Origin: Okamejei kenojei
Lineage: Eukaryota
Length of the DNA: 64,000 bases
Assembly: GCA_035221665.1 (NCBI GenBank)
Contig: CM069163.1
Coordinates: forward strand, 7,192,001 to 7,256,000
Direction: 5' to 3'
Shown here piece by piece: positions 57,418 through 57,551 of the stretch (positions are counted from its first letter, which is position 1; each line of letters opens with the position of its first letter). A model generated the notes under the pieces. That model did no database searches, was not told the DNA's origin, and saw only the letters and a program-made list of their open reading frames with translations. A program made the position numbers and the translations under genes.

Positions 57418-57551
57418 CAGTCTGAAGAAGGGTCTCGACCCGAAATGTCACTCATTCCTTCTCTCCAGAGATGTTGCCTATCCTGCTGAGTTACTCCAGC
57501 ATTTGTATCTACCTTTGATTTAAACCAGCATCTGCAGTTCTTTCCTACACA
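57418..57551 (+). mobile_element. Penelope-derived short element with the best-preserved hammerhead-like core
   Basis: AGT-CTGAAGA-A-GGGTC-TC-GACCC-GAAA-TGTC-ACT at 57419-57452; body ends gcagttctttcctacaca. Confidence 0.85.

Follow-up and report, generated by a model that had tools for sequence, protein, structure and literature searches.

Short skate repeats with a minimal hammerhead motif as probable end stubs of Penelope-like element insertion

Hammerhead ribozymes of Penelope-like elements (PLEs) have been described by a consensus that comprises CUGANGAH, a stem II closed by a G-to-C pair, GAAAN, a palindrome and NUH, all preceded by a flank rich in U (PMC4209133; this and the other sources are cited here from the parts of their text available to us). 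They are mostly single copies from truncated PLEs, with some pairs on opposite strands, and coelacanth and Xenopus each hold in the range of 4,000–9,000 motifs, with low cleavage even as dimers (PMC4209133). In PAc, a Poseidon element of Anolis carolinensis, two internal starts of reverse transcription define a tail, both strands are cut and extended, and uncut RNA is the main template; the PAc hammerhead cuts only together with protein, as shown in vitro (PMC11167929). Animal retrozymes consist of tandem units with mostly canonical ribozymes and give circular RNA (PMC7229834), and in one preprint a single dimer out of nine tested was cleaved (10.64898/2026.07.22.740005).

We focus here on a repeat family in a window of 64,000 nt (the whole stretch of DNA analysed), which is of a known kind and apparently an undescribed member of it. 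The family fits every element of the published PLE consensus, down to the additional base that follows A9, and it shares with the metazoan PLE minimal hammerheads the core, the pyrimidine-rich upstream sequence and the occurrence as dispersed single copies, some of them inverted, that number thousands per fish or amphibian genome (PMC4209133). It differs in stem I, since only six of 44 published alignment rows have a stem I of 2 bp, and all six form it from two G-C pairs, whereas here it is GU/AC (PMC4209133); judged by its pairing, stem I of this family would lie at or below the weak end of the published set. Chondrichthyans are absent from those 44 rows, and the terms 'shark', 'Callorhinchus' and 'Leucoraja' gave 0 matches in the available part of the supplement (PMC4209133). 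No description of the family in cartilaginous fish was found in the literature searched, and the available part of a little skate preprint makes no mention of Penelope; repeat databases, which lay outside the search, probably hold it. As a ribozyme the motif is ordinary, given that fish and amphibian genomes contain dispersed minimal hammerheads of truncated PLEs by the thousand. What the family offers is material: the ends, duplications and junctions of the copies can test the origin of PLE inverted repeats and one-sided tails, and the copies can also be used to ask if the template of transposition is ever cut by its hammerhead.

The likeness extends to the layout of the insertions. In common with PAc, the hammerhead would lie shortly upstream of two starts of reverse transcription, with an optional tail; these putative starts are known here from sequence alone, stem II contains no start codon, and the spacing is ~60 and ~100 nt past the cut, compared with ~85–92 nt for one PAc site (PMC11167929). 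In common with EN+ PLEs (PMC3846280, PMC8557442), there is a head-to-head inverted truncated copy, duplications of 8–10 bp, an optional tail of 30–40 bp at one end (~40 nt here) and microhomology or a palindrome at the junction, while the insertions here are only ~50–230 bp long, lack a reading frame and make up ~4% of the window. Non-LTR retrozymes (PMC7229834; 10.64898/2026.07.22.740005) are likewise non-coding, short and PLE-related and carry a type I hammerhead, whereas the copies here are dispersed or inverted and their motif is minimal and mostly dead. Weighing these comparisons with the evidence below, we consider the copies best explained as short end stubs left by PLE insertion, a reading to which we would give a probability of about 0.7.

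The features of the reference copy are as follows.
57418..57551 (+): full unit of 134 nt, comprising hammerhead motif, body and a ~40-nt tail; no target-site duplication found
57422..57449 (+): minimal hammerhead core, with C3-A9, the extra A at 57429 and stem II (57430-33/57438-41), followed up to 57449 by G12-A14, A15.1, U15.2 (C in the family), G16.2, U16.1 and C17
57419-21 and 57450-52 (+): stem I arms, 3 bp in this copy (AGT/ACT), 2 bp in the family (GT/AC)
57512..57551 (+): optional 3' tail of ~40 nt; in reference numbering, short copies stop at ~57509-11 and long ones at ~57543-51

The initial annotation had proposed a dispersed and very abundant family, and on both points it was right. 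The unit gave 22 blastn matches in the window, and an nhmmer profile gave 28, covering 2,499 bp or 3.9% of the window; the reversed window gave 0. Contigs from four public runs of four organisms, two of the runs being RNA by guess only and one of those two flagged as probably DNA, pile up on 57418-57551 and nowhere else within 57380-57600, with 9,084–106,224 contig pieces of the unit per run. Scaled up roughly from this single window, which has 28 pieces in 64 kb, a genome of ~2 Gb would contain pieces on the order of a million. Pattern scans gave no match in viral contigs, prokaryote genomes or plasmids, nor, with the long pattern, in metagenome contigs; the 119 metagenome loci found with the short pattern were rejected, none having the unit beyond the pattern itself and the best (L111) being judged a chance match. 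Within the unit, AGATGCTG (family form, 57469-57476) and CAGCATCT (57526-57533) form an internal inverted repeat that is present even in old copies, and CAGCAT precedes both classes of 3' end; these elements are candidates for a protein-binding or start signal.

The motif at 57419-57452 (+) consists of CTGAAGA, an extra A, a 4-bp stem II (GGGT/ACCC, loop CTCG), GAAA and TGTC, just as had been annotated. The pattern CTGANGA-N(8-30)-GAAAYGTC has its single match in the 64-kb window here (57422-57449), compared with 0.01 expected from 100 shuffles, and a fuller descriptor with the stems again matched the window only at 57422 and gave one match in 200 resampled windows. CUGANGA, GAAA and UH lie in order at 57422-57449 and are also the family majority; stem II is closed by the G10.1-C11.1 pair (G57430-C57441), and A57429 is the extra base after A9. 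The family form fits all the consensus features of PLE termini, a match that the initial annotation had held, and from these features the motif is a minimal type I hammerhead of the PLE kind, with its cut predicted after 57449 (C17). Two details of the annotated structure divide between family and copy. The palindromic ACGU of stem III (15.2/16.2) is the family form, C standing at 57446 in 74–88% of contig depth in all four runs, and would allow a dimeric stem III; the copy at 57418 has AUGU instead, which would pair with wobbles only. Conversely, the 3-bp stem I is real in this copy, and its third pair is private to it, since 57452 is C in 94–98% of depth in the four runs, leaving the family with 2 bp.

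A ribozyme with so short a stem I is likely to be weak or silent. A search of the motif against Rfam gave no hammerhead match at gathering score, and none among six weak unrelated matches with E up to 10. For a dimer of the 38-nt majority piece, the hammerhead helices alone reach −6.1 kcal/mol and the best cofold −21.1 kcal/mol, a weak test in that core contacts lie outside the model. The unit monomer folds no better than shuffles, and its core pairs with downstream pyrimidines.

The copies in the window are largely decayed. Complete cores had been annotated at 6392, 14468, 43927, 10283, 11385, 59720 and 60322 as well, and every one of these turned out to be altered or incomplete; the catalytic positions are intact in one of 11 younger core-spanning copies, that at 57418. 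Stem II is broken at 6392, where U16.1>C is found too; at 14468 both stem II and the palindrome are broken; 43927 has A9>G with the ACGT palindrome retained, 10283 has G12>A, 59720 has G5>A, 60322 combines A9>G with G12>A, and 11385 lacks CTGAAGA. Mismatch is 33% at CpG columns and 14% elsewhere, so much of the damage is CpG decay. Two tests that had been named in the initial annotation did not come out in its favour: non-CpG mismatch in the core, 10/112 (8.9%), does not differ significantly from that in the rest, 160/1,136 (14.1%; p=0.15), and none of the six pairs of stems I and II shows compensatory change in 15 aligned copies, which are decayed insertions and give the test low power. The best tail block has 44 mismatches in 449, and RNAalifold across the copies returned no consensus structure. 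Absence of covariation and core conservation is expected of these copies because they are dead insertions, and it does not address the source element. The sparse core variants in the contigs are not counted as selection, since variants near alignment ends are unlisted and mapping favours matches. In older subfamily copies (57346 plus, 57218 minus, 34470 plus, 21655 minus and 22545 minus) the bases around the core differ, hinting at older lineages with longer stem I arms, in copies too decayed for covariation to be counted.

Apart from the reference unit, the copies that stand alone are the following.
6390..6482 (+): solo short copy without tail, 9-nt target-site duplication
10193..10288 (−): solo short copy, 14-nt target-site duplication
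11268..11389 (−): solo long copy that starts inside the core; 7-nt flanking repeat, inseparable from chance
21562..21655 (−): older short copy, core decayed, flanked by an 8-nt repeat
43584..43630 (−): tail-only insertion of 47 nt with its own 11-nt target-site duplication
43922..44057 (+): solo long copy, A9>G with ACGT palindrome kept
48515..48620 (+): old tailed copy flanked by a 10-nt target-site duplication
57686..57752 (+): 5'-truncated copy without hammerhead, from blastn and the copy alignment
59608..59727 (−): solo long copy whose 10-nt target-site duplication overlaps the core at its start
60193..60490 (−): long copy with an upstream stretch that is rich in pyrimidines and has CAG just before the core; upstream limit uncertain

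Direct repeats of 9 nt or more flank six of 18 loci, compared with 0.8% in a null of random window pairs (P ~4e-9), and repeats of 8 nt or more flank seven of 18 compared with 2.7%, the other 11 loci having none of that length. The duplications are 8, 9, 10, 10, 10, 11 and 14 nt long and are thus varied. The 3' ends fall into two classes, with 11 of 17 younger copies ending at reference 57543-57551, four ending ~40 nt earlier and two shorter still. In the long copy at 60193..60490, the last 20 nt of the upstream stretch resemble the consensus of the loose-end contigs before 57418, and this stretch is likely to be more of the terminal repeat.

Six further insertions are head-to-head pairs; a seventh, with older-subfamily cores, is listed last and excluded from the six on the ground that one arm is cut short.
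14334..14556: pair in which both arms begin at C3, tail on minus arm only, 10-nt target-site duplication
22458..22630: older pair, part of the tail on plus arm only
34772..35272: pair with a different repeat (34860-35145) in between, tail on minus arm only
40736..40896: pair joined inside the hammerhead, tail on plus arm only
41950..42150: pair with tail on minus arm only
52160..52354: older pair, tail on minus arm only
57114..57395: decayed cores of the older subfamily, head to head (57218 minus and 57346 plus); a pyrimidine tract and CAG precede each of the two

A tail is present on a single arm in all six pairs, and the six junctions are all different. If arms are assumed independent, one-arm tails in six of six have P ~0.012, a value built on 9/15 solo copies with tail that were classed by eye. 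The same arrangement, an inverted arm running into a direct arm with the tail on one side, is seen in three predicted proteins from other contigs (P0123, P0125 and P0127), as protein sequence only. The inverted pairs are predicted to fold as long hairpins of −76 to −131 kcal/mol, which would bury the hammerhead motif.

The 5' ends bear on the state of the template RNA. Among 17 copies, 10 begin at 57417-57422, one further upstream and six further in, one of these within 3 nt of the cut. Drawing the limits from visible homology favours a pile-up at 57418; only copies bounded by duplications fix it independently, as the starts at 6390, 10285 and 59726 lie within a few bases of C3 and so do those of the two arms at 14462/14468. 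Contig depth is equally high upstream and downstream of the cut, with no step up at the cut itself. Because copies start upstream of the cut, whereas cleaved RNA would give starts after C17, the insertion templates are, on the evidence of these ends, uncut RNA, and every insertion in the window can be explained without cleavage. A pyrimidine tract and CAG precede the core at 60331, 57346, 57218 and 34470 and at the loose ends of all four runs, and TCAGT at 57417-57421 is initiator-like. The RNA may begin at this TCAGT, the 5' edge of the motif; the tract and CAG also resemble a splice acceptor. A promoter and an intron have been described in PLE terminal repeats (PMC2377424), and the intron of the D. 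virilis PLE ends at helix I (PMC4209133); here, no splice donor or transcript was seen for a terminal-repeat intron. In one run (X21), high-depth joints lead from 57449 or 57455 back to 57417-57418, which suggest a hammerhead-only tandem of 33–38 nt in one organism and may be an assembly loop.

Links to a PLE reading frame were sought in the window and beyond it. Pfam, applied to the 233 window ORFs of at least 60 aa, found a PLE domain in none of them, its matches being Tc1 transposases, a LINE-type reverse transcriptase (RT) and PF09004. The unit's 44-codon open frame had no match in a word search of proteins, and phmmer gave 14 matches, of which 11 are other copies translated in unrelated short frames and three are due to chance, with no RT or GIY-YIG domain among the 14. 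One ENA record, P0132, a single sequence read as protein only, holds the unit and tail in translation and then a stretch in which another frame fits the C-terminal half of GIY-YIG. The motif used for this fit, which was composed after the sequence of P0132 was known, has 0 matches in 208,800 control positions and 0 in 5,000 shuffles. The downstream part of P0132, when searched, matched itself only, and a locus considered as its DNA (L120) was rejected as a chance match. The layout of P0132 would fit a partial tandem; a neighbouring insertion of another PLE is a possible alternative. Taken on its sequence features, the unit behaves, with high confidence, like a PLE end, and is likely to be a PLE derivative.

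Under the end-stub reading, which takes the anole PLE as its model (PMC11167929), a PLE protein would bind the RNA immediately 3' to the hammerhead, and staggered nicks would be made in both target strands, ~8–14 nt apart. Reverse transcription would then begin at either of two sites inside the RNA, ~60 or ~100 nt beyond the cut, and the cDNA would usually terminate at the 5' edge of the hammerhead. Extension of a single strand would leave a solo stub, while extension of both nicked strands, one from each start site, would leave head-to-head cDNAs with a tail on one arm only. For the ribozyme itself to act, a partner copy would be required, and probably help from the protein too. A more far-reaching version, which we put forward tentatively and as less probable than its converse, holds that this PLE end is a fossil record of insertion and one of the commonest skate and ray repeats: a protein dimer would prime both target strands from two start sites and run off the RNA 5' end at the hammerhead edge, and the family would have spread across several species after stem I shrank to 2 bp, its core kept for a non-cleaving or protein-dependent role. 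If this were true, two-strand priming would account for one-tailed head-to-head pairs without antisense templates. In this respect we depart from PMC3846280, which favours self-priming on an antisense template, whereas we infer two-strand priming.

The alternative closest to the end-stub reading keeps the same enzyme and changes the source RNA: short masters, transcribed from TCAGT at 57417-57421, would form a self-standing non-autonomous mini-element that uses PLE protein in trans, as SINEs use LINEs. The sharply defined 5' edge and the very large number of copies would suit such an element, as would the loose ends at 57419 that run on into long flanks of unrelated sequence, seen in two runs (456 and 933 contigs), and there is precedent both for initiator-like motifs and internal promoters in PLE terminal repeats (PMC3846280, PMC2377424) and for non-autonomous PLE derivatives (PMC8557442). 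We nevertheless regard it as rather unlikely, as the upstream continuation at 60331 minus and the pyrimidine-rich loose ends in four of four runs look like a longer terminal repeat, and the CAG can equally be read as a splice acceptor, comparable to the D. virilis intron at helix I. The non-LTR retrozyme, whose tandem units cleave as dimers, circularise and reinsert, appears improbable. Head-to-tail joints from 57551 to 57418 do occur, the four runs having 3, 6, 36 and 40 contigs with such a joint, and the preprint cited above (10.64898/2026.07.22.740005) reports hammerhead repeats in tandem for the single chondrichthyan it covers and traces retrozymes to the terminal repeats of PLEs. Against this, none of 10 tandem-repeat rows and 28 profile matches in the window is a tandem of the unit, the canonical helix I, loop 1 and loop-loop architecture of type I are lacking from a family with a 2-bp stem I, the ends of the unit do not track the cut site, with sequence upstream of it included in the copies, and inverted pairs would hide the motif in long hairpins. 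The contig joint counts are not used to gauge tandem frequency, because inverted pairs, which are common in the window, are under-reported there too; given the joints, rare dimers able to cleave may occur. The label 'retrozyme-like' in the initial annotation is thus not one we would keep, for want of window tandems and loop-loop architecture and in view of the sequence upstream of the cut in the copies.

The two remaining explanations dispense with a PLE. That the six inverted pairs are DNA-transposon MITEs, with terminal inverted repeats in which a hammerhead-like string arose by chance, is very improbable, as the duplications range over 8–14 nt instead of being fixed, the arms are unequal in six of six pairs, all junctions differ, and solo arms and the 47-nt tail-only piece have separate duplications of their own. 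A best match to the terminal inverted repeat of a DNA transposon had been named beforehand as what would speak against the annotated family; the varied duplications, unequal arms and differing junctions favour retro-insertion instead. We give still less credence to a LINE 3' end or a SINE mobilised by a LINE: varied duplications and 5' truncation would also suit LINE-type insertion, and CR1-like elements are present, yet no unit follows the CR1-like RT at 24028-24627 (there is none between 22618 and 34510), poly(A) or microsatellite ends and a tRNA are lacking, and two 3' ends with one-sided tails are traits of PLEs (PMC8557442).

The window contains further mobile sequence. That CR1-like RT fragment (24028-24627) has its closest named relatives in Hypanus (77% and 75%), Leucoraja (74%) and Chiloscyllium (73%), with birds and turtles mostly at 45–55%, which makes an elasmobranch the likely host. 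Two Tc1/mariner transposons, both decayed, lie at 3042-4679 and 60991-62116 and have long terminal inverted repeats along with fragments of transposase, and MITE-like elements at 5051-5713 and 28105-28615 are bounded by inverted repeats of 106 nt and 52 nt, respectively. The repeat inside the head-to-head pair (34860-35145) is a second, SINE-like one in which no tRNA gene was called, with relatives near 9402, 18028, 32172-32439, 44095 and 59340. Assembly gaps account for 408 N bases, at ~37500-37750 and elsewhere in the window. Finally, the PF09004 match falls in a 218-codon open frame at 39861-40514, which is probably not a host gene but the end of a LINE-type element.
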